Shown one piece after another: positions 1,888 to 11,393 of a DNA stretch of 11,925 nucleotides (positions are counted from its first letter, which is position 1; each line of letters begins with the position of its first letter). Under the pieces are notes generated by a model. It was not told the DNA's origin and ran no database searches. It was given only the letters and a program-made list of their open reading frames with translations. The stretch comes from a virus (Duplodnaviria > Heunggongvirae > Uroviricota > Caudoviricetes): IMG/VR virus record IMGVR_UViG_2778261461_000004; one strand, given 5' to 3'. A program made the translations under genes and the position numbers.

Positions 1888-2001
1888 ATGAACAGCATAC
1901 TGATAATCACTTCTCTCCTTATCATATTCAGCATTTTTAGTCATGCCCTAATAAAATTAGGGATTGGCATATCCAATAACCCAGACAAAACCGATGTATA
2001 A
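1888..2001 (+). CDS. Hypothetical 37-aa small hydrophobic protein ([37 protein letters not shown])
   Basis: ATG at 1888 preceded by GAGG (cgaggctatATG), TAA at 1999..2001. One predicted transmembrane helix followed by a polar tail. Too short for the supplied ORF track. It ends 68 nt upstream of ydfK. No homology evidence available. Confidence 0.25.
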
Positions 2002-2069
2002 GTCAACATATCCTGAATCAGACATACAATATCGCAATGAAAATCAATAATATTTTAAGGAATATCTTC

Positions 2070-2303
2070 ATGAAATCAAAAGACACCCTAAAGTGGTTCC
2101 CTGCGCAGCTTCCTGAAGTAAGAATTATCCTAGGGGATGCTGTAGTGGAAGTAGCAAAACAGGGAAGACCTATTAATACCAGAACATTGCTTGATTACAT
2201 TGAAGGAAACATAAAGAAAAAATCATGGCTGGATAACAAAGAATTATTACAAACAGCGATATCAGTTCTTAAAGACAACCAAAATTTAAATGGTAAAATG
2301 TAA
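2070..2303 (+). CDS. ydfK: Cold-shock-induced small protein YdfK/YnaE family
   Basis: Translation MKSKDTLKWFPAQLPEVRIILGDAVVEVAKQGRPINTRTLLDYIEGNIKKKSWLDNKELLQTAISVLKDNQNLNGKM matches my recollection of YdfK (77 aa). AAGGAA lies 8 nt upstream of the ATG at 2070. The track's 2037 start has no comparable RBS. Confidence 0.8.
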   Translation: MKSKDTLKWFPAQLPEVRIILGDAVVEVAKQGRPINTRTLLDYIEGNIKKKSWLDNKELLQTAISVLKDNQNLNGKM

Positions 2304-3308: not shown

Positions 3309-3745
3309 CTACGGCAGTGCTGGCCATTCAATATCCTGTGCAGTTGACGTATCAACACGGTTCAGCAATACCCGATACTTTTTCCATGCTTCCAGCAACG
3401 AGATTTCTTCCTCCGTTGCAATTTCCAGATCTGCAGCATCCTGAAGCGGCGCAATATGCTCACTGGCTACCTGCATCAGGTTGTTTTTTGTTTCTTCCGC
3501 CTCCCGGATCCGGAACAGTTTTTCTGCTTCCGTATCCTTCACCCAGGCTGTGCCGTTCCACTTCTGAAACTCCCCTTCCGGCGATAACCAGGTAACATTT
3601 TCCGGTAACGGACCGAGTTCAGAAATAAATAACGCGTCGCCGGAAGCCACGTCATAGACGGTTTTTCCCCGATGATCTTCAACGAGATGCCACGATGCCT
3701 CATCACTGTTGAAAACAGCCACGAAGCCTGCCGGAATATCTGGCG
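3309..3745 (-). pseudogene. tfaQ: Tail fibre assembly protein (Tfa) remnant, 5'-truncated
   Basis: Translation from [35 protein letters not shown] to DIEWPALP matches the C-terminal roughly 140 residues of lambda-type Tfa proteins. The N-terminal ~55 residues are absent and in-frame stop codons lie immediately upstream. No ATG is available; the track's start is a GTG at 3722 that corresponds to an internal Val of intact Tfa. Confidence 0.8.
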
Positions 3746-5086
3746 GTGCAATACCCAGTCTGATTCTGTCGCCGCTCCACCACGAATCTGAATTTTCCAG
3801 GCCTCAGCCTCCTTAACAGGGTCAATCCACGGCATCACTGGTCCGGAATACACCGCGGTATACAGTGAAGAACGGTCAAGATCGCGGGGTAACCTGATAA
3901 CACCGGATGCCACAGCCTGTTTCAGCCATGCACGATACATCGGGCGGGTTACGGCACCAATAAACCAGTCCTGCAGGATCAGGTAGCCATCAGTAGACTC
4001 AACCAGTTCCTGACGCTGGGCGCTGTAAGTGCCGTTATAGTTTCGTGCCGTACTGGAAAAACTCAGACGACTGCCCGCCGCCACGGCACGCAACTGACCA
4101 TTACGAAAAGTTTCAAGGTTAGGATTGGGACGATCCGACTTCACCATTCCGATTTCTTCGCCGGGTTTCAGATCGTCGTAAATAATGCCTGGCTGAATGG
4201 TAAGCTCGCGTTCATTCTCCTTGCTGTCATTACCATCCGTTTCATAGCTCTGTCCGTCGCCTTTCCGGATGTACATCCCCAGAGCAGCGGCGATCCTTGC
4301 TGCAGTCAGCTCAGAATCTTCATACTCTTTCAGGGCGCTGAGGCGGATCAGCACACCGGACAATAAAGACGTCCCGCGCATCTGGTGCAGACGGCGAACA
4401 AATTTAAGATGCAGCATTCGCTCTGCATCCACTTCTTTGGTTTCCATCTGCCGTCCGGATACAGGACGACTTTTATACACCAGATATTTTTCGGGACGCC
4501 CCCAGTCATCAACAAACACGCCCTGATTCAGCCTGTTGCTCTCATCACTGGTCATGGGAATAAAGTCCGGCTCGAGCGCCTCCAGCCAGAAATGAACACC
4601 GGCAGAAGGCGTCAGGCTGTTTATGCGCCCGGAAACCATCTGGGCAAACACCTCACCATCGCGCAGCCAGGTACGCAGCATCAGACGTTCCAGCATCGGA
4701 CGGGTAAACTGCCCGGTGACTTCCGGACTGACAGACCATTCACTCCATCGGGTGCGTATCTCCGCTGCCAGGTCACGGGCAATGGCACCATTGCGTAATA
4801 CCGGATGTGGCTCGACAATAATCCCGTTTTTCCCCACCACCCGTTCTTCCAGCTTGTCAAATACACCAATGACCAGATCGTGGTTGTTATCAAGGTAACG
4901 GGCCTGCTCACGTAACGACACGGCCCCGTACTGGCTTAACTGGTCGGCAGTTCGGTTCTCCCGTCGGGCTTTGTGTGTCCGCGTCGTTTTTACGGCCTCA
5001 TAAGCCTGGATCACCGCTCGGGAACGCAGCCTTGCCGCTTTCCATCCTGGTGAAAAAACGCCAATCACATCATCAAGAATTGCCAT
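3746..5086 (-). pseudogene. Phage portal protein (lambda gpB-like family), 3'-truncated and read through into out-of-frame tfa sequence
   Basis: The track ORF 3539..5158 contains a portal-like sequence from MAILDDVIGVFSPGWKAARLRSRAVIQAYEAVK onward, with the ATG at 5084..5086 overlapping the gpW-like stop (TGATG). About 447 codons are portal-native, against roughly 500-540 for intact homologs. The last ~70 codons of the track ORF are tfa DNA read in another frame. Confidence 0.7.
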
Positions 5087-5298
5087 CAGAACCTCGCCAG
5101 CCGGTACCCGGGATGCCCCCGTCGTCGTGTAATCAGAGCCGCAAGGCGGCGCTCCCACTCCTGCCGCCCCTGCCGGATCTCAGATAAGTTTTCCATGGTC
5201 ATCTGCTGACCATTAAAAGTGACGGATTTTCCGTCCAGCACCGCCATTTCAGCTTCCGTATAACGCTGAATCATGGCTTCAATATCATTCTGATTCAT
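5086..5298 (-). CDS. Head-tail joining / head completion protein, gpW-like
   Basis: 70-aa protein (MNQNDIEAMIQRYTEAEMAVLDGKSVTFNGQQMTMENLSEIRQGRQEWERRLAALITRRRGHPGYRLARF) between terminase large subunit and portal, as in lambda A-W-B order. The C-terminal RRRG.PG motif resembles lambda gpW. The ATG at 5298 overlaps the TerL stop as ATGA, with GGAGG 6 nt upstream. Confidence 0.6.
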   Translation of the reverse strand: MNQNDIEAMIQRYTEAEMAVLDGKSVTFNGQQMTMENLSEIRQGRQEWERRLAALITRRRGHPGYRLARF

Positions 5299-7397
5299 AA
5301 CCATCCTCCGGAAGTCAGCCAGGGGTTAACATCGTCAGTTACTGTTTTCTTCCGTTTTTGTTTTTTAACAGGCGTGGATACCGGTTCCGGTGTGGGTGAC
5401 GGTTCGGTGCTGTCCGGGACACACTCCAGCCAGGTTTCCCGGCTCGCCCACTCCGGTGCATCCGGCCAGCGGATCTTTTCGTATCCATGCAGAATGACCA
5501 GAGCCTCGGCATACACCATCAGGTCAAAAGCTTCGTTGGCACCGCGACCCGGCTTACTCCATTTCCCGTCACTGCTCCGCTCTTCATACGTCAGTTCGTC
5601 GTAAAACCAGCTCCCCAGCCAGTCAGGGAAATGCACATAGCCGGGACCTGGCGAGTCACGCCATAACGCGTTATTCACCCGGTCTTTCAGGGCATCCGTC
5701 TGAAGAAGCCAGAGCGGTACATCACCTGCGGCCTGCGCCCGTCGGCCCGTTCGTCCGGTGTTATCAGGGAATGTACGGGTGATCAGTTTTGCGCGCCGGA
5801 TGCTGTCGCCCTTAAACAGGTAAATACGTTTACCAAGGCCATCACGACGGCAACGACGCCAGAATTTATAGGCATTATCAGTGACCCCGTCTTCACCGCC
5901 GGAGTCCACCGCCATTGCCATCAGTCGTATTTGTTGAGAAGGATCGGAGGCCAGCGGCCAGCTTTTATGAAAAACATCCGTCAGCAGGACATCCCAGTCT
6001 TCCGGATAGCTGGCCGGATCAATTCGCTGGCTCTCCCCGTCGCTGTCACCGCGCAATGACTGCGTGATGTTGTAACGATCAATAATCCAGCGTTCGCCAC
6101 GGCTGCCATAGCCCGTTACCTGAACCACAAAACGGCGATGACGTCCCGCCTGCACATCCACTGTCGCCACAAGGAAATTAACGCCATCCGGCACACTGCG
6201 GGAAGGAACTGGCTCTGCCCGCTGCTCAAGCAGTTCACTTTTTCGTTGCTCCATGCTGGCGCGGGGAAGATAAGGTAATCCCCAGTCGGTATTGATAACC
6301 GTCTTGAGTGTTTCTTCACTTCCGGTTGTCTCGTATTCCTGTTCTGCAGTAAGCAGTTTGTAAACGAGTTGCGAGAGTGTCTGGTAAGCAGCTGCCGGAC
6401 CCTCCATCCAGAATGACGCAATACGTGAACGCCTGGGATCACCATAACGACTGCCATCCGCATTGATGGATTCACCATCCCGCAACCAGACCCCACGTCC
6501 GTTCAGCTCACGTTTTTGTTCAGGCATAATCCGTCCTGAACAGAAAGGACACTGAATATAAGCCGCCTCACTTGCCAGCACGGGATCGGCAATATCACGG
6601 AAACCAGCAACCACATCGCCGCAGGGCTGAAAATACTCACCACAGTGTGGACATGGCCAGTACCAGCGACGGCGATCACCACGGTTATAGAGCGACAGGA
6701 TCCCCGTGGTTGGTGGAGCCTCATGCGGTGAAGTCCGTCGCCATTTCACATCCTTCACATCCCTGCCGGGGGAACTCTCCACCAGCGTCATACCGCTGGA
6801 CATAAATGTGGTGGTACGTTTTGAGGCAAGAGAGAAGGCATCCCCCTCGCCATCAATATCTTCCGGAAAACGGTCATAATCCGTCAGCGCGACGCATTTA
6901 TAATCTGATGAGGACATGATATTGACTGACGGCCAGCCGATTTTCAGGTAGTTGCCAGCAAGGAATGTTCTGTCATAAACGTTGTTGTCATTTTTGTTCG
7001 GACTCAGGCGACTGACCACTTCCGGGCTGACGCGAAACGTTCTGGCGAGTCGTTTTTTGGAGTGTTCGCGGGCTTTTTCCTCTGTCATCTGAATGATCAG
7101 CATATCCGCAGGATCGCAAATCACGTTGTAAATCACCCAGCCGTCAATCAGGCCGATAGTCTTGCCGGTTCGTGCCGGGCCAACAAATATCACTGCGTCG
7201 TATTCACGCGAGGCCAGGCAGTTCATAGGCTCAATAACATACGGTGCCACCAGCGGATCCCACGGGACTGAGTTCCCTGCCCCCATGGGCACCCGCATAT
7301 ACTGAGCAACGGCATCAGCAACCCGCATTCGTCTCGGTGCGCGAAGGATATAACCTGAATCGGTTCGTGCTGCCTTTGCGGTTTCCTGATTCAGCAT
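5295..7397 (-). CDS. Terminase large subunit (lambda gpA family)
   Basis: 700-aa ORF with a Walker A-like motif VGPARTGKT near the N-terminus, directly downstream of a Nu1-like small subunit. Strong RBS GGAGGAG upstream. The start overlaps the TerS stop (TAATG). Confidence 0.9.
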   Translation of the reverse strand: MLNQETAKAARTDSGYILRAPRRMRVADAVAQYMRVPMGAGNSVPWDPLVAPYVIEPMNCLASREYDAVIFVGPARTGKTIGLIDGWVIYNVICDPADMLIIQMTEEKAREHSKKRLARTFRVSPEVVSRLSPNKNDNNVYDRTFLAGNYLKIGWPSVNIMSSSDYKCVALTDYDRFPEDIDGEGDAFSLASKRTTTFMSSGMTLVESSPGRDVKDVKWRRTSPHEAPPTTGILSLYNRGDRRRWYWPCPHCGEYFQPCGDVVAGFRDIADPVLASEAAYIQCPFCSGRIMPEQKRELNGRGVWLRDGESINADGSRYGDPRRSRIASFWMEGPAAAYQTLSQLVYKLLTAEQEYETTGSEETLKTVINTDWGLPYLPRASMEQRKSELLEQRAEPVPSRSVPDGVNFLVATVDVQAGRHRRFVVQVTGYGSRGERWIIDRYNITQSLRGDSDGESQRIDPASYPEDWDVLLTDVFHKSWPLASDPSQQIRLMAMAVDSGGEDGVTDNAYKFWRRCRRDGLGKRIYLFKGDSIRRAKLITRTFPDNTGRTGRRAQAAGDVPLWLLQTDALKDRVNNALWRDSPGPGYVHFPDWLGSWFYDELTYEERSSDGKWSKPGRGANEAFDLMVYAEALVILHGYEKIRWPDAPEWASRETWLECVPDSTEPSPTPEPVSTPVKKQKRKKTVTDDVNPWLTSGGWL

Positions 7398-7891
7398 TAC
7401 TCCTCCTGCTGTAATTCCTCCTCATCATCCGCACCTGCTTCAGTCACCCGCAGGGCTATCTGATCGCGCAGATCATCAATAATGGACTGAACACGGCTCA
7501 CAGCGGCAGGCTGCAGACCGCAGTCACGTTCAAGAATATCCGGTAATGTCTCCAGCACCTGCACGACCGCTTTTGCCCAGATGGCAAACTCCCGTCTGAC
7601 ATCACTGGCCGGAATGAGTTGTGCCGTTTCCTGTTCGAACTTAAGACGCTCACGTTCAGACTGATACCAGGCTTTGCGCTCATGCGCGTCCATTTCGCCT
7701 TCTGCAACCGGCGGTGGTAATGCCAGAAATGCCGACACAATATCAACCACCCGATAAAGCTTGAGGTTGCTTTCATGCCCCCCTGCAACGGGTAGATTTT
7801 GCAGCCTTGCCGCAGCAGTCTGGCGATGTACACCTGACAATGCCGCCAGTTGACTGATATTCAGCGTCAGATTTTTTAACTCTCGATCCAT
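7397..7891 (-). CDS. nohA: Terminase small subunit, Nu1-like (NohA/NohD family)
   Basis: 164-aa ORF. The N-terminus NLTLNISQLAALSGVHRQTAAARL is HTH-like, as in Nu1-type DNA-binding small subunits. The C-terminus is acidic (EAGADDEEELQQEE). It sits about 180 bp downstream of the cos-like sequence, with GGAG upstream of the ATG. Confidence 0.8.
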   Translation of the reverse strand: MDRELKNLTLNISQLAALSGVHRQTAAARLQNLPVAGGHESNLKLYRVVDIVSAFLALPPPVAEGEMDAHERKAWYQSERERLKFEQETAQLIPASDVRREFAIWAKAVVQVLETLPDILERDCGLQPAAVSRVQSIIDDLRDQIALRVTEAGADDEEELQQEE

Positions 7892-8039: not shown

Positions 8040-8112
8040 ATTTCAAAAACTAGCCTTTTTCCGCGACGCTCCCGCCCCGTGGCAGGGACCCCCACTGGGA
8101 GGACCCGACAGC
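8040..8112 (-). other. Candidate cos site (cosN-like core about 8061..8082, with adjacent cosB-like sequence toward terS)
   Basis: Read on the minus strand the sequence is CCACGGGGCGGGAGCGTCGCGGAAAAAGGC...GAAATTTTATTCGTCAT. This resembles, from memory, lambda cosN (GGGCGGCGACCTCGCGGG) and the downstream GAAAATTTT and TTCGTCAT elements. Position relative to the terS start is about the same as cosN to Nu1 in lambda (~190 bp). Confidence 0.5.
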
Positions 8113-8443
8113 CTGACAACCGTGACGAGCATCTGAAACAGAGCTTTACATAATGGCATGGGGATAATTCAGAAGGACATCACAGCATGCCCACACAAAT
8201 TAGTGTGAGTGTCCTGTTTCTTACTACGCGCAGGACTGACGAGCATGAGGGGAAAATACGCGAACCGAAATGCCTTATCTTCAGAAATGCAGCCGGCATC
8301 CGAACTGGACGATATTGTAAATTCACCTAAATACGAGGCATTGCTGTAGTTGAATTGCAGTACTGTATTAGCCTTACAGTGACAGAATACGATATTGACT
8401 CTGTCACTTGTGAAATGGTCAGAATGGTTAGCAGTTATGGTGA

Positions 8444-8650
8444 TCAGTCAACCACCAGGGAATAATCCTTCGTATTCTTATCGTGCTTTACTAACGCGGC
8501 CTCAATTGCCCTGAATGCTTCCAGAGATACTTGATGTTCTATACATGCAATTACAACATCCGGGTAACCCATCGAAATGGTGCTATTAAGCATAGTTTTT
8601 ACACGAACCTGCTCCTGGGAGGGGGCATCAGTGTATTGATCTTTATGCAT
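8444..8650 (-). CDS. Hypothetical 68-aa prophage protein, possibly DUF3950 (YlcI/YnfO-like) family
   Basis: [71 protein letters not shown] with GGAG 7 nt upstream of the ATG. Family assignment is from recollection only and is uncertain. Confidence 0.55.
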
Positions 8651-8857
8651 TTTGTCGCTCCATTCGTTTGCTCTTCACTTGCGGCCAAAAATATAACGTC
8701 AAATCACTCAGCATGAAAGAGTGAAAGTTTCAGCGCGTTTCCCTTACATAATCTGTCGTTTGTATTCTCTTCAGGCATACCGGAAAGACTAGGTATTGTC
8801 ACATAACCAATACCATCGACAATCGAGATTTATATCTATTCGGTAATGTTTAAATAT

Positions 8858-8880
8858 AAAAAAACCCCGTAAAAACGAGG
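8858..8880 (-). terminator. Rho-independent terminator downstream of gnsB
   Basis: On the minus strand: stem CCUCGU / ACGGGG (with one G-U pair), a short U-rich loop, then a run of 7 U. Located 65-90 nt downstream of the gnsB stop. Confidence 0.55.
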
Positions 8881-8945
8881 TTTATGGGTAATTTGTATTG
8901 TTGAATAGCATCTGATGAGAAATTGATGCTAATACTATAAACATG

Positions 8946-9119
8946 CTAGATTAAATCAATCTTGATATCATAGCTTTCAAGACCAGTCATTTTTTCCCGT
9001 GCAGTAAACTGGATACTGGTAACTTCTTTCCCGGTCTTTTTCTTAAGCTCAATGATTTTTTTTGTTATATATTCAGAAATATCTGCTTCTGTTTTTGTTT
9101 TTAACTCTTCAATGTTCAT
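8946..9119 (-). CDS. gnsB: Gns family protein (GnsA/GnsB)
   Basis: 57-aa translation MNIEELKTKTEADISEYITKKIIELKKKTGKEVTSIQFTAREKMTGLESYDIKIDLI matches the Gns family. AAGAGGAA lies upstream of the ATG at 9119 (alternative ATG at 9122). The track's longer 88-aa start at 9212 is not supported by an RBS. Confidence 0.8.
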   Translation of the reverse strand: MNIEELKTKTEADISEYITKKIIELKKKTGKEVTSIQFTAREKMTGLESYDIKIDLI

Positions 9120-9291
9120 CATTTCCTCTTTTAGTCTGTTATGACTGTCCTGGTACACAGTAGTGTCAATTATATGGAGCAAACGTATAAAAGATAAGAT
9201 GAAACATCGCAATAATCAACATACGACGGTCTAAATTTCACACAAACAGATAAAGATGATTATCATTTATTATCAATGCATTAGAATCAAA

Positions 9292-9522
9292 TCAATTCAA
9301 GAGTCTCATTGCTGCTTCCAGAATTTCTTCTGAAGTTACATGTCGATCCGCTGCTACATAAATGACTTTATGATCTCCGGTCAGAGATGGAAACCCTGCG
9401 GCCATTACAGTAAGGTGTGTTTTTTCGCCATTTGGATATTCACGCATGATGGTGTTAACTCCAGTCATCGCTGGCACTACCACTGCTGGTTCAGAGTTAA
9501 AAAAAACTATGATTTTTTTCAT
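9292..9522 (-). CDS. Hypothetical 76-aa protein (possibly YnfN-like, by position)
   Basis: ORF MKKIIVFFNSEPAVVVPAMTGVNTIMREYPNGEKTHLTVMAAGFPSLTGDHKVIYVAADRHVTSEEILEAAMRLLN from the ATG at 9522. The track's extension to 9564 starts at a TTG inside a terminator. Weak RBS. Lies between gnsB and cspI, as ynfN does in K-12 Qin by my recollection. Confidence 0.5.
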   Translation of the reverse strand: MKKIIVFFNSEPAVVVPAMTGVNTIMREYPNGEKTHLTVMAAGFPSLTGDHKVIYVAADRHVTSEEILEAAMRLLN

Positions 9523-9565
9523 GATGTTACCGTAGTATGTGAGTATCCATCGAATAGATACCAAG

Positions 9566-9587
9566 CAAAAAAGCTCCCGAAGGAGCC
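9566..9587 (-). terminator. Rho-independent terminator with UUCG tetraloop
   Basis: On the minus strand: GGCUCC-UUCG-GGAGCU followed by UUUUUU. The plus-strand A-run makes it potentially bidirectional. About 200 nt downstream of the cspI stop. Confidence 0.6.
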
Positions 9588-9793
9588 TTCATTTTCACTT
9601 TTTTAAATCCAACGACAGACGGCTGGCATTTAAGTATTGTGAAATATTATCAAATGTAATCATCATTGATTTACAAAAGATACATTTTGCCCCGAAAGGA
9701 TTCATGTCAGAAACATCAAAAGATGATGTTCTATACTGGGAACCATGACAACACGGGCATCTAAAGTGAATATGGTTTGTAATATTGTCTACC

Positions 9794-10006
9794 TCAAAGC
9801 GCCACTACATGAACAGCGGCAGGACCTTTAGGTCCGTTCTCAATACCAAATTCAACTTCCTGATTCTCAGTTAATGTTTTGAAATCGTTGCTCTGAATTG
9901 CTGAGAAATGGACAAACACATCTTTGCTGCCATCTTTCGGCGTGATGAAACCAAAACCTTTTTCAGGGTTAAACCATTTCACTAAACCAGTCATTTTGTT
10001 AGACAT
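9794..10006 (-). CDS. cspI: Cold shock protein, CspA family
   Basis: 70-aa [73 protein letters not shown] with RNP1-like KGFGFI and RNP2-like VFVHF motifs. AAGG RBS upstream. Followed upstream by a long untranslated region, as is typical of csp genes. Confidence 0.9.
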
Positions 10007-10369
10007 AATTATTACCTTTTGAAGAAATTAGCCCTTGGGCAGAATGGTCCGAAAAAAAATATCAGAGAGAAAAACCAACAAGGAAATCTCAAGAGGTACA
10101 AATAATAAAATTATAACAATGACTGCTTCAGATAAATTTGTAACAAACCAGAACACCATTAACGCATGATTAACCACCCATAGCAAGGATTACTTTTGTA
10201 AAGAAAAACACAGCAATGAAAGAATAGCTTTATTTATTAATAATAACGTGTCATTCTGATTAAGACCTTTTATCTTACCCTTAAGATTTCAGGAATTTTG
10301 GCTCATGGAAGAGTCCTTTTTATTTAAATTTTACATTCCGCGATGTAAATGTTCCGATTTAATATTACC

Positions 10370-11393
<1,024 letters not shown>

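Follow-up and report, generated by a model that had tools for sequence, protein, structure and literature searches.

A cassette of cold-shock and host-physiology genes between Rz and cos of a Qin-type lambdoid prophage, very probably a moron region with its own promoters

Genes of the cassette and their place in the prophage

The window (the whole stretch of 11,925 nucleotides that was analysed) is a lambdoid prophage of the Qin type that lies at ydfJ in E. coli and is defective; it has 100% identity to strain C1 and 97% identity to K-12 Qin. A truncated portal gene forms a fusion with a tail-fibre-assembly fragment, and the terminase genes are intact. Between Rz (rzpQ), the last gene of the lysis module, and the cos site lie five genes, all encoded on the minus strand and named here according to PGAP (strain C1) and EcoCyc: cspI, ynfQ, ynfR, ynfN, and gnsB. 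The original prediction for this DNA had placed a cluster of gnsB, a small ORF (ynfN), and cspI between the lysis module and cos, and this arrangement holds, but ynfQ and ynfR had been overlooked. The genes and boundaries of the region are the following.

8066..8078 (approximate, no strand): cos cohesive-end site, where the moron region meets the packaging module, placed by analogy
8444..8650, minus strand: ybcW-like ORF of 68 aa, the final gene before cos (PGAP, identical in strain C1; phrog_657, E 4.6e-48)
8946..9119, minus strand: gnsB, encoding a 57-aa GnsA/GnsB family protein (Pfam PF08178, E 2.1e-33; PGAP)
9292..9522, minus strand: ynfN, a 76-aa ORF (PGAP; phrog_3425, E 1.3e-54)
9527..9592, minus strand: ynfR, a 21-aa ORF annotated in strain C1 and K-12, spanning terminator T1
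9595..9783, minus strand: ynfQ (YmcF-like), 62 aa with two CxxC pairs (Pfam PF23641, E 1.7e-32, positions 1-62 of 62)
9794..10006, minus strand: cspI, encoding a CspA-family cold-shock protein of 70 aa (Pfam CSD, E 1.6e-31; PGAP)
10370..10867, minus strand: rzpQ, a DUF2514 i-spanin-like Rz (Pfam PF10721, E 9.7e-38; strain C1 and K-12 annotation)
about 10420-10674, minus strand: rzoQ-type lipoprotein ORF embedded in rzpQ, with an LTSC lipobox

The GC content is 30-39% over 8650-10450, whereas the lysis genes have 46-50% and the terminase genes 52-56%; this trough is the composition signature of a moron. The cassette occupies the Rz-to-cos slot, which in lambda holds bor; lambda shares the flanking ybcW-like segment (82-85% DNA identity to lambda 47629-47966, at the lambda right end), but there bor fills the slot. 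Since the end of the Tritos genome record maps to window position 8078, beside a lambda-like CCCGCCC/CGTGG junction, cos was set at ~8066-8078; the junction in the window, CCGCGACGCTCCCGCCC/CGTGGCAGGG, parallels the lambda junction CGCGAGGTCGCCGCCC/CGTAACC. Among sequenced phages, mEp460, HannyBb, 2H10, Tritos, and PhiR63_1 have the cluster at this same place, and prophages of Citrobacter, Trabulsiella, and Yokenella carry the cassette in the same slot together with other lysis and terminase modules. Among complete E. coli genomes, about 2112 of 5426 (~39%) are carriers. A search of the cassette for repeats gave nothing relevant.

CspI is 100% identical to K-12 CspI and belongs to the CspA family, having one CSD over residues 5-69 with the motifs KGFGFITP (RNP1) and DVFVHF (RNP2). 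Directly 3' of it, ynfQ begins with an ATT codon 10 nt after the cspI stop, and its Shine-Dalgarno sequence, GAGG, overlaps the cspI stop codon. The product and K-12 YnfQ are identical, the K-12 gene likewise being annotated to start at ATT, and across genera the start of ynfQ/ymcF genes is kept as ATT, or as ATG at the same position. The full-length PF23641 match, the CPCC...CIFC pattern, and the position of the gene behind cspI identify YnfQ as YmcF-like, and the order of a csp gene followed by a ymcF-like gene recurs in K-12 cspG-ymcF, in many genera, and in Morganella phage IME1369_01. The stop codon of ynfQ and the start of the next ORF, ynfR, are 2 nt apart. Because a TAG codon shortens it to 12 codons in CFT073 and mEp460 and the start codon is absent in the Citrobacter-type cassette, the YnfR peptide is not conserved. 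In K-12, YnfR-SPA was detected and was strongly cold-induced, with the tag lying downstream of T1 (PMC6001520).

Homologues of ynfN were found at 46 Enterobacteriaceae loci, nearly always just 3' of csp-ymcF and in most cases at a distance of 70-95 nt. The K-12 copy has T7 where the window has T8, a 1-nt deletion that shifts the frame and removes the first 25 codons, leaving 51 aa. Searches of Pfam, NCBIfam, and PDB sequences gave no family or match for YnfN; its AF2 model (pLDDT 88) has five strands and a C-terminal helix, and a Foldseek search of this model against the PDB returned no match at E <= 0.001. GnsB matches PF08178 over positions 1-54 of 54, is 65% identical to K-12 GnsA, and matches the GnsA crystal structures 4XO1 and 4XO2.

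Promoters, leader, and terminators

The control signals proposed for the cassette are the following.

10255..10320, minus strand: conserved upstream block that travels with the cassette, with the palindrome GACTC-N6-GAGCC at 10300-10315
10158..10186, minus strand: putative sigma-70 promoter of cspI (homology to the cspA promoter and cross-genus alignment)
10007..10152, minus strand: cspI 5'UTR of the cspA thermoregulator type, ~146 nt (Rfam RF01766; alignment with the cspA/B/G/I leaders)
9567..9590, minus strand: T1, intrinsic terminator between ynfQ and ynfN (GGCUCC-UUCG-GGAGCU, then U6)
9169..9219, minus strand: putative gnsB promoter region (phylogenetic footprint)
8852..8883, minus strand: T2, intrinsic terminator 3' of gnsB (stem-loop 8883-8862, then UUUUAUAUUU)

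The original prediction expected a 360-bp leader upstream of cspI carrying cold-shock regulatory elements. The elements are there: Rfam RF01766 matches 9767-10152 on the minus strand over model positions 1-428, with 112.8 bits (gathering score 78; E 8.4e-29), and it was the only structured RNA returned for the cassette by an Rfam search at E <= 1. The length requires correction, as the 363 nt upstream of cspI divide into the 146-nt 5'UTR, then the promoter, an AT-rich upstream region, and a spacer. Transcription of cspI probably starts at ~10152, to judge from the start of the Rfam model, the alignment with cspA/B/G, and the promoter spacing. The putative promoter consists of a -35 element, TTGCTA, at 10186-10181, a 17-nt spacer, and an extended -10 element, TGc-GTTAAT, at 10166-10158; an alignment of nine csp upstream regions, drawn from six genera, shows no variation in the string CTTGC...TCATGCGTTAATG, which lines up with the cspA promoter. 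The comparison with cspA-type 5'UTRs that the original prediction had proposed as a check bore it out: the -35/extended -10 elements, the GGTTTG start region, and the upstream box GCC-NNNN-GGC are common to cspI, cspA, cspB, and cspG.

Within the cspI 5'UTR, which could also be aligned with the cassettes of other genera, the upstream box GCCCAAGGGC lies at 10040-10031 and the cold-box region near the 5' end is shortened. The likeness to the cspA mRNA thermosensor (RF01766) comprises a full-length match and extends to the promoter, the start region, the upstream box, and elements in the coding region, and suggests that this leader may act as a cspA-family RNA thermosensor. Because the leader is, unlike those of cspA/B/G, without ~16 nt of the cold-box segment, and because its RF01766 alignment contains many non-canonical pairs, thermosensing by cspI is something that we infer. 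Cold induction of cspI has been reported (Wang et al. 1999, as cited in PMC7406224).

Further upstream, the palindrome GACTC-N6-GAGCC is found once at each locus, ~300 nt before the csp ATG, in prophages of Escherichia, Citrobacter, Trabulsiella, and Yokenella, and the prophages that share the upstream block have Rz genes of different families. A 5-codon mini-ORF within this block was dismissed, being absent in Trabulsiella and Yokenella. Neither the palindrome at 10300-10315 nor a hairpin at 10320-10372 was called an Rz-proximal or plus-strand terminator, because the folding of both equals that of shuffled sequence (z -0.04 and -0.35).

For gnsB, the candidate promoter has a -35 element, TTGATT, at 9219-9214, a 17-nt spacer, and a -10 element, TATCTT, at 9196-9191; a perfect TATAAT at 9174-9169 is a second -10 candidate. 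In the Escherichia and Citrobacter cassettes the spacing of TTGATw-N17-TATCkT is constant while the sequence of the spacer has diverged, and a generic promoter scan lists TTGATA-17-TATCTT in the Citrobacter cassette. The same kind of scan of the window listed neither the cspI nor the gnsB promoter, and a terminator scan picked up T1 and T2. No promoter fits or is conserved in the ~45 nt between T1 and the ynfN ATG. A plus-strand promoter-like site at 9237-9266 (10/12 match), considered as the possible source of a ynfN antisense RNA, was rejected, as its sequence is not conserved in K-12 and Tritos.

The raw number of terminators in the region was not above chance (5, compared with 3.6 +/- 1.7 in shuffles). 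The two factor-independent terminators that had been predicted at 8858..8880 and 9566..9587 nevertheless stand individually, both folding on the minus strand, the coding strand, with z of about -3, and both being conserved or replaced in diverged cassettes. T1 begins 7 nt past the ynfQ stop codon and has a folding energy of -14.9 kcal/mol (z -2.89) on the minus strand versus -7.6 kcal/mol (z -1.3) on the plus strand. It is unchanged in five close relatives (95-97%) and kept in Citrobacter with wobble or compensatory changes, and at its site Raoultella and Klebsiella have unrelated GC hairpins with a T-run instead. T2 has a 9-bp stem followed by a U-run (-10.8 kcal/mol, z -2.99, minus strand). 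Although a 36-nt indel lies immediately before it, the hairpin does not vary among the window, K-12, CFT073, Tritos, and mEp460, and the Citrobacter-type cassettes have at its site unrelated hairpins with a T-run, one pair of which shows a UA to CG compensation. The further claim that each gene has its own termination signals fails, since the five genes have two terminators between them, and ynfN lacks both a recognisable promoter and its own terminator.

Expression in related prophages and a transcription model

The expression data considered here come from relatives of 96-97% identity, namely Tritos in E. coli LF82 and K-12 Qin. In the LF82 supplementary table the gene labels are offset by one row, and genes were therefore assigned by coordinates and length. 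In the Tritos lysogen, the mean normalised values in LB were 955 for cspI, 274 for gnsB (174 bp), and 51 for ynfN (156 bp), and 8, 6, and 14 for the late genes Rz, endolysin, and small terminase, respectively (PMC9928086, S1 table). Thus cspI and gnsB are ~30-100-fold above the adjacent late genes in a prophage that is 96% identical over the region, and the Tritos cassette genes were reported as morons from RNA-seq (PMC9928086). Across the 10 LF82 RNA-seq samples, ynfN tracks cspI (r = 0.91) at a 7-29-fold lower level, gnsB and cspI are uncorrelated (r = 0.07), and the cspI/ynfN ratio is greatest where cspI is highest. In K-12, cspI, ynfQ, and ynfN changed with AZT by 6.5-, 5.9-, and 5.8-fold and showed an SspA dependence of 38-, 42-, and 51-fold (PMC11228462). 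Mutants of cspB and cspI lose competition in long-term stationary phase (PMC7406224).

Taken together, we consider it very probable that the region is a Qin-type cold-shock moron cassette, in which host-physiology genes have their own promoters under prophage repression and form two minus-strand units. This agrees with the original prediction of independently transcribed morons expressed in the lysogen, which the Tritos RNA-seq, the putative cspA-type promoter, the terminators, and the GC deviation uphold; its interpretation is supported, and its observation is confirmed in part, with minor corrections. Transcription of the first unit would begin at ~10152 from the cspA-type sigma-70 promoter PcspI, and the 146-nt 5'UTR would, by homology to cspA, render the cspI mRNA stable and translatable in the cold and unstable at 37 C. 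The unit would yield CspI and, from the AUU start, the zinc-ribbon-like small protein YnfQ, and T1 (9590-9567) would end most of its transcripts. The few per cent of transcripts predicted to pass T1 would provide YnfR, unconserved and translated across the hairpin, and YnfN; read-through of T1 appears to be the source of ynfN expression. The second unit would start at the gnsB promoter (TTGATT-17-TATCTT), possibly also at the downstream TATAAT, and end at T2 (8883-8862). In the lytic cycle, polymerase modified by Q and arriving from the late promoter would transcribe through the entire cassette.

Alternatively, ynfN may correlate with cspI because it has a promoter that escaped detection and answers to the same regulator.

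One reading that differs from this takes T1 as a possibly regulated attenuator that gates ynfN and not as a simple operon end, and we regard it as conceivable but rather doubtful. The array of csp, ymcF with its AUU start, hairpin, and ynfN is conserved across several Enterobacteriaceae genera with no fitting promoter, and the hairpin lies 5-7 nt past the ymcF/ynfQ stop and is translated as ynfR in E. coli; therefore, read-through into ynfN may be settable by ribosomes or by Csp. If so, read-through of T1 would be set (i) by ribosome occupancy at the end of ynfQ/ynfR or (ii) by RNA melting (antitermination) by the operon's own Csp, which would couple YnfN synthesis to cold shock, and the conserved AUU codon at which ymcF/ynfQ begins would add a second point of control, sensitive to IF3. 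Antitermination by Csp at T1 is not favoured at 37 C, because the LF82 cspI/ynfN ratio is largest at the highest cspI level. A division into three morons, in which cspI, the small ORF, and gnsB would each have a promoter, a long leader, and a terminator, is unlikely. The middle of the cassette has a good terminator on either side, and there are gaps of 172 nt between ynfN and gnsB and of 363 nt before cspI, as such a division would have it; however, the interval between ynfN and gnsB has no terminator (segment 9225-9295 folds like shuffles, z +0.2), the interval between T1 and the ynfN ATG offers no promoter, and the leader takes up only the proximal 146 nt of the gap before cspI. Moreover, ynfQ follows within 10 nt of cspI, so the first unit is at least bicistronic, and ynfN follows cspI in LF82 and responds like cspI and ynfQ in K-12.

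The family name of GnsB in Pfam and PGAP, 'GnsA/GnsB toxin / addiction module toxin', raises another reading, that ynfN-gnsB is a toxin-antitoxin (addiction) module like ymcE-gnsA, which stabilises the prophage and does not serve the host. The pair ymcE-gnsA is among the listed E. coli type II toxin-antitoxin systems (PMC8484670), and ynfN stands at the position of ymcE in the paralogous K-12 cspG-ymcF-ymcE-gnsA cluster, both genes having 76 codons. Against this, YnfN and YmcE do not align at E <= 100, K-12 maintains a frameshifted ynfN beside an intact gnsB, and ~30 of the 46 loci with YnfN homologues have no gns gene within 2.5 kb. In addition, the gnsB transcript in the lysogen is ~5-fold over that of ynfN and varies independently of it, and between the two genes lies a gap of 172-204 nt that contains a separate promoter footprint, itself conserved. 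We consider such a module very unlikely, and YnfN was rejected as a YmcE-like antitoxin, as it has no similarity to YmcE and does not qualify as a cognate antitoxin of the ymcE-gnsA kind. Lastly, the genes lie inside the late operon in its orientation, and generic scans were not above chance, which would suit a cluster that lacks autonomous expression and is merely part of the Q-dependent late transcript, its hairpins being incidental. This is scarcely credible given that the published levels in the Tritos lysogen, where cspI and gnsB far exceed the neighbouring late genes, are the opposite of expression confined to the late transcript, that the K-12 Qin copy is expressed and regulated, and that a putative cspA-type promoter and a UTR of this type are present and conserved.

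Known systems and significance

The essentials of the cassette were already known, as its genes are named and annotated in K-12 and RefSeq, and cspI as a cold-shock gene with a cspA-type leader, the cold-induced YnfR, and the Tritos morons have been published. The K-12 Qin cluster cspI-ynfQ-ynfR-ynfN-gnsB (b1552, b4724, b4749, b1551, b1550) is like that of the window in genes, order, strand, and position after rzpQ, with 97.3% DNA identity over 1.45 kb and the same two terminators and cspI leader. Unlike the window, which has the ybcW-like ORF there, K-12 Qin has ydfO/ynfO between gnsB and nohA, and nohA is a remnant, whereas the terminase genes of the window prophage are intact. Tritos (OV696610), mEp460, HannyBb, and 2H10, which are functional or sequenced lambdoid phages, carry the cassette between a DUF2514 Rz and the genome end (cos) at 96-97% identity; Tritos differs in having an extra gene, ybcV (DUF1398), between gnsB and ybcW. 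The K-12 cluster cspG-ymcF-ymcE-gnsA resembles the cassette in its cspA-type promoter and 5'UTR and in the succession of csp, a ymcF-like gene that begins with ATT 10 nt on, a middle gene, and gns, with DNA identities of 74% over csp and ymcF and 73% over gns. It differs in its middle gene, the unrelated ymcE, which overlaps both neighbours, and it is without a T1-like terminator, ynfR, or ynfN and is not within a recognisable prophage.

Classical lambdoid morons include bor and lom of lambda and the morons of HK97 and HK022, the latter reportedly defined by Hendrix and colleagues. Like these, the cassette is an extra block among conserved phage genes; it has a putative promoter and a terminator of its own and a deviant composition, and, to judge from Tritos, it would be expressed from the repressed prophage. 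It is unlike them in being a multi-gene cold-shock operon with a putative RNA thermosensor, versus a single surface-protein gene, and in consisting of what appear to be two units linked by a leaky terminator.

For specialists, the points of interest are the AUU start that is conserved in ymcF/ynfQ, the terminator before ynfN, which is conserved but apparently leaky, the status of the K-12 reference ynfN as a frameshifted remnant, and the conserved block upstream of the cspI promoter. More broadly, the cassette may serve as a textbook example of a temperate phage that carries, in the Rz-to-cos moron slot, a host-type stress operon that would be under the control of an RNA thermosensor.

Setting and gene content of the cassette

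According to the annotated record, the window lies within a lambdoid prophage of the Qin type, at the ydfJ locus; positions 8400-10900 are 100% identical to the E. coli strain C1 chromosome, and upwards of 2000 further complete E. coli genomes match them at 95-99% identity. In the strain C1 annotation, ydfJ', ynfT, ydfK, and pinQ come first, followed by the fusion of a tail-fibre-assembly fragment with a truncated portal gene, the two terminase genes (large, then small subunit), a ybcW-like ORF, the cassette (gnsB-ynfN-ynfR-ymcF/ynfQ-cspI), and rzpQ, rrrQ, ydfR, and essD, an order found in K-12 Qin across the relevant part (97.3% identity over 1.45 kb). The cassette does lie between Rz and cos, as had been proposed: rzpQ ends at 10370, and the genome record of the temperate phage Tritos, a prophage of E. 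coli LF82 (OV696610), ends at a point mapping to 8078, adjoining a lambda-like cohesive-end junction; the ybcW-like segment shows homology to the lambda right end.

The prophage itself is defective. Its portal pseudogene (3752-5086, minus strand) is fused directly to the tail-fibre-assembly fragment (3309-3752, minus strand), and therefore the head and tail genes have been deleted; the terminase genes (5295-7891) are intact, in contrast to K-12 Qin. The tail-fibre-assembly fragment also contains a full-length Rfam match to IS009 (220.9 bits; 3343-3541, minus strand). At the other prophage end, adjoining the truncated ydfJ, ynfT and ydfK ("cold shock protein YdfK"; 1888-2303, plus strand) form a second cold-shock-associated moron pair. 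Induction of ydfK in long-term stationary phase accompanies that of cspI, cspB, and ynfN (PMC7406224), and an Rfam search found no cspA-type element upstream of ydfK.

The cold-shock cassette is already known, annotated, and published. All of its genes are on the minus strand:

9794-10006, minus strand: cspI; protein identical to K-12 CspI, full cold-shock domain
9595-9783, minus strand: ynfQ (YmcF-like); ATT start 10 nt past the cspI stop
9527-9592, minus strand: ynfR; 21 codons, annotated
9292-9522, minus strand: ynfN; 76 aa
8946-9119, minus strand: gnsB; matches the GnsA/GnsB family over its full length, with 65% identity to GnsA, for which a crystal structure exists

The original prediction had named cspI, gnsB, and a small ORF, which is ynfN, but had missed the annotated ynfQ and ynfR. 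The ATT start of ynfQ/ymcF occupies the same position in Escherichia (including K-12 ymcF), Citrobacter, Trabulsiella, Scandinavium, and Yokenella, and gives way to ATG in a Morganella phage and in Raoultella and Klebsiella. Such conservation of AUU as the start codon of a gene in a cold-shock operon could reflect control of its initiation in an IF3-sensitive manner. The 51-aa K-12 reference ynfN is a frameshift remnant, in which a T8 run has become T7. The intact 76-aa gene is present in the window, CFT073, Tritos, and mEp460, even though the Tritos record annotates the 51-aa form only (5955-6110 in comparison locus L003). The predicted YnfN structure is a confident model, yet no known fold relative was found for it.

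Control signals and proposed transcription units

Upstream of cspI, the original prediction of a 360-bp leader with cold-shock elements was correct in kind but not in length. An Rfam cspA thermoregulator match (9767-10152, minus strand; 112.8 bits against a gathering score of 78, E 8e-29) begins at model position 1, which puts the length of the 5'UTR at about 146 nt. Aligned with K-12 cspA, cspB, cspG, and cspI, the region has the common -35 (TTGC), extended -10 (TGCGTTAATG), GGTTTG start region, GCC-NNNN-GGC upstream box before the Shine-Dalgarno sequence, and conserved 5' coding sequence; about 16 nt of the cold-box segment are missing from cspI. Nine csp upstream regions, drawn from six genera, show no variation in the promoter core. 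The remainder of the 363-nt gap consists of an AT-rich region and a conserved block some 70 nt long (10255-10320, minus strand) that contains the palindrome GACTC-N6-GAG(T/C)C. This block, located about 150 nt upstream of the cspI promoter, is found in single copy at the cassette loci of Escherichia, Citrobacter, Trabulsiella, and Yokenella, and the Rz genes that precede it there belong to different families.

Both predicted terminators are terminator-like hairpins on the coding (minus) strand, each followed by a U-run: T1 (9590-9567; dG -14.9 kcal/mol, z -2.9), between ynfQ and ynfN, and T2 (8883-8862; dG -10.8 kcal/mol, z -3.0), downstream of gnsB. Because terminator-like sites in the region are not above chance (5 versus 3.6 +/- 1.7), the case for them rests on relatives. 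Adjacent bases vary among K-12, CFT073, Tritos, and mEp460, but neither hairpin changes. In a diverged Citrobacter-type cassette (YnfN 75% identical), T1 is kept with loop and wobble changes, and an entirely different hairpin occupies the place of the gns terminator; Raoultella and Klebsiella loci have another GC hairpin and T-run between ymcF and ynfN. Alignment folding gave one compensatory UA<->CG pair for each of T1 and T2, which is supportive, although the samples are small. Translation of the ynfR ORF runs across T1, and the hairpin is conserved although the peptide is not (TAG after 12 codons in CFT073 and mEp460; start codon absent in the Citrobacter-type cassette).

Since ynfQ starts 10 nt past cspI, the first unit comprises at least these two genes. 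T1 begins 7 nt past the ynfQ stop, leaving only about 45 nt before the ynfN ATG, and cassette comparison showed no promoter-like sequence present or conserved in this stretch. In most cases among 46 species-representative genomes, the YnfN homologue follows csp-ymcF at a distance of 70-95 nt and with the same orientation. Upstream of gnsB, the motif TTGATw-N17-TATCkT is constant in sequence and in spacing even as the spacer itself changes; in the window, a perfect TATAAT follows 22 nt downstream of it. Given the proximity of ynfQ to cspI, the lack of a recognisable ynfN promoter, and the conserved motif before gnsB, we read the cassette as two units: (i) cspI-ynfQ from the cspI promoter to T1, with leaky read-through into ynfR-ynfN, and (ii) gnsB from its own putative promoter to T2.

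Expression in related prophages and alternative arrangements

Published data from related prophages bear on this arrangement. In Tritos, which is 96% identical to the window here and whose cassette genes its authors call morons, mean LB values were 955 for cspI, 274 for the 174-bp gnsB, and 51 for the 156-bp ynfN, with 8 for Rz, 6 for endolysin, and 14 for terS (PMC9928086, S1 table). Gene labels in that table are one row off, and gnsB was assigned by length and coordinates: LF82_0907 (174 bp), listed as the moron "YnfN" at 27-fold over background (Table 1/S1), is gnsB, and the row that carries the label "cold-shock protein" belongs to the 156-bp ynfN. The cassette genes are thus not confined to the late transcript in the LF82 and K-12 data, as the original prediction required, and late-transcript-only expression is contradicted by expression in lysogens.

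Three independent units, for cspI, the small ORF, and gnsB, fail on ynfN, which has no recognisable promoter or terminator of its own and whose expression follows that of cspI. Across ten LF82 samples, ynfN correlated with cspI (r = 0.91) at 7-29-fold lower levels, and gnsB did not (r = 0.07) (PMC9928086 data). In K-12, induction and SspA dependence are near-identical for cspI, ynfQ, and ynfN (PMC11228462), a long-term-stationary-phase profile is common to cspI and ynfN (PMC7406224), and YnfR-SPA, tagged downstream of T1, is strongly cold-induced (PMC6001520). It is possible that T1 is a regulated attenuator, acting via ribosome occlusion or Csp antitermination, but this is unsupported, as the LF82 cspI/ynfN ratio peaks where cspI itself does. 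A toxin-antitoxin pairing of ynfN with gnsB fails its defining test: K-12 ynfN is frameshifted beside an intact gnsB, YnfN is unrelated to YmcE, its homologues usually occur without gns, and expression of ynfN is both far lower than, and independent of, that of gnsB. With these corrections, the original observation was essentially right, and its interpretation as an independently expressed moron cluster is supported.

Mobility and relatives of the cassette

In keeping with moron character, the cassette is a GC trough (30-39%, versus 46-56% in the flanks). The same four-gene unit follows the lysis genes in Citrobacter-type prophages with GpA-type or HNH/TerL-type packaging modules, and in Trabulsiella and Yokenella prophages with lambda-type Rz/Rz1. 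Citrobacter-type prophages (comparison loci L011, 2981-3094, L012-L015, and L025) carry a DUF2514 Rz 3' fragment just upstream of the csp cassette besides their own complete DUF2514 gene, and this fragment resembles a scar left by acquisition of the cassette from a Qin-like phage. In a Morganella phage, a csp-ymcF-terminator module follows Q. The K-12 chromosomal cspG-ymcF-ymcE-gnsA is a paralogue, 73-74% identical to the cassette but with a different middle gene. A Scandinavium locus (L042, 1-5225) has a csp-ymcF-ynfN array among non-phage genes (glycine-zipper, YidB-like, and DUF2534), which suggests that the cassette occurs as well in the form of ordinary genes of the chromosome and that it may have originated in a host.
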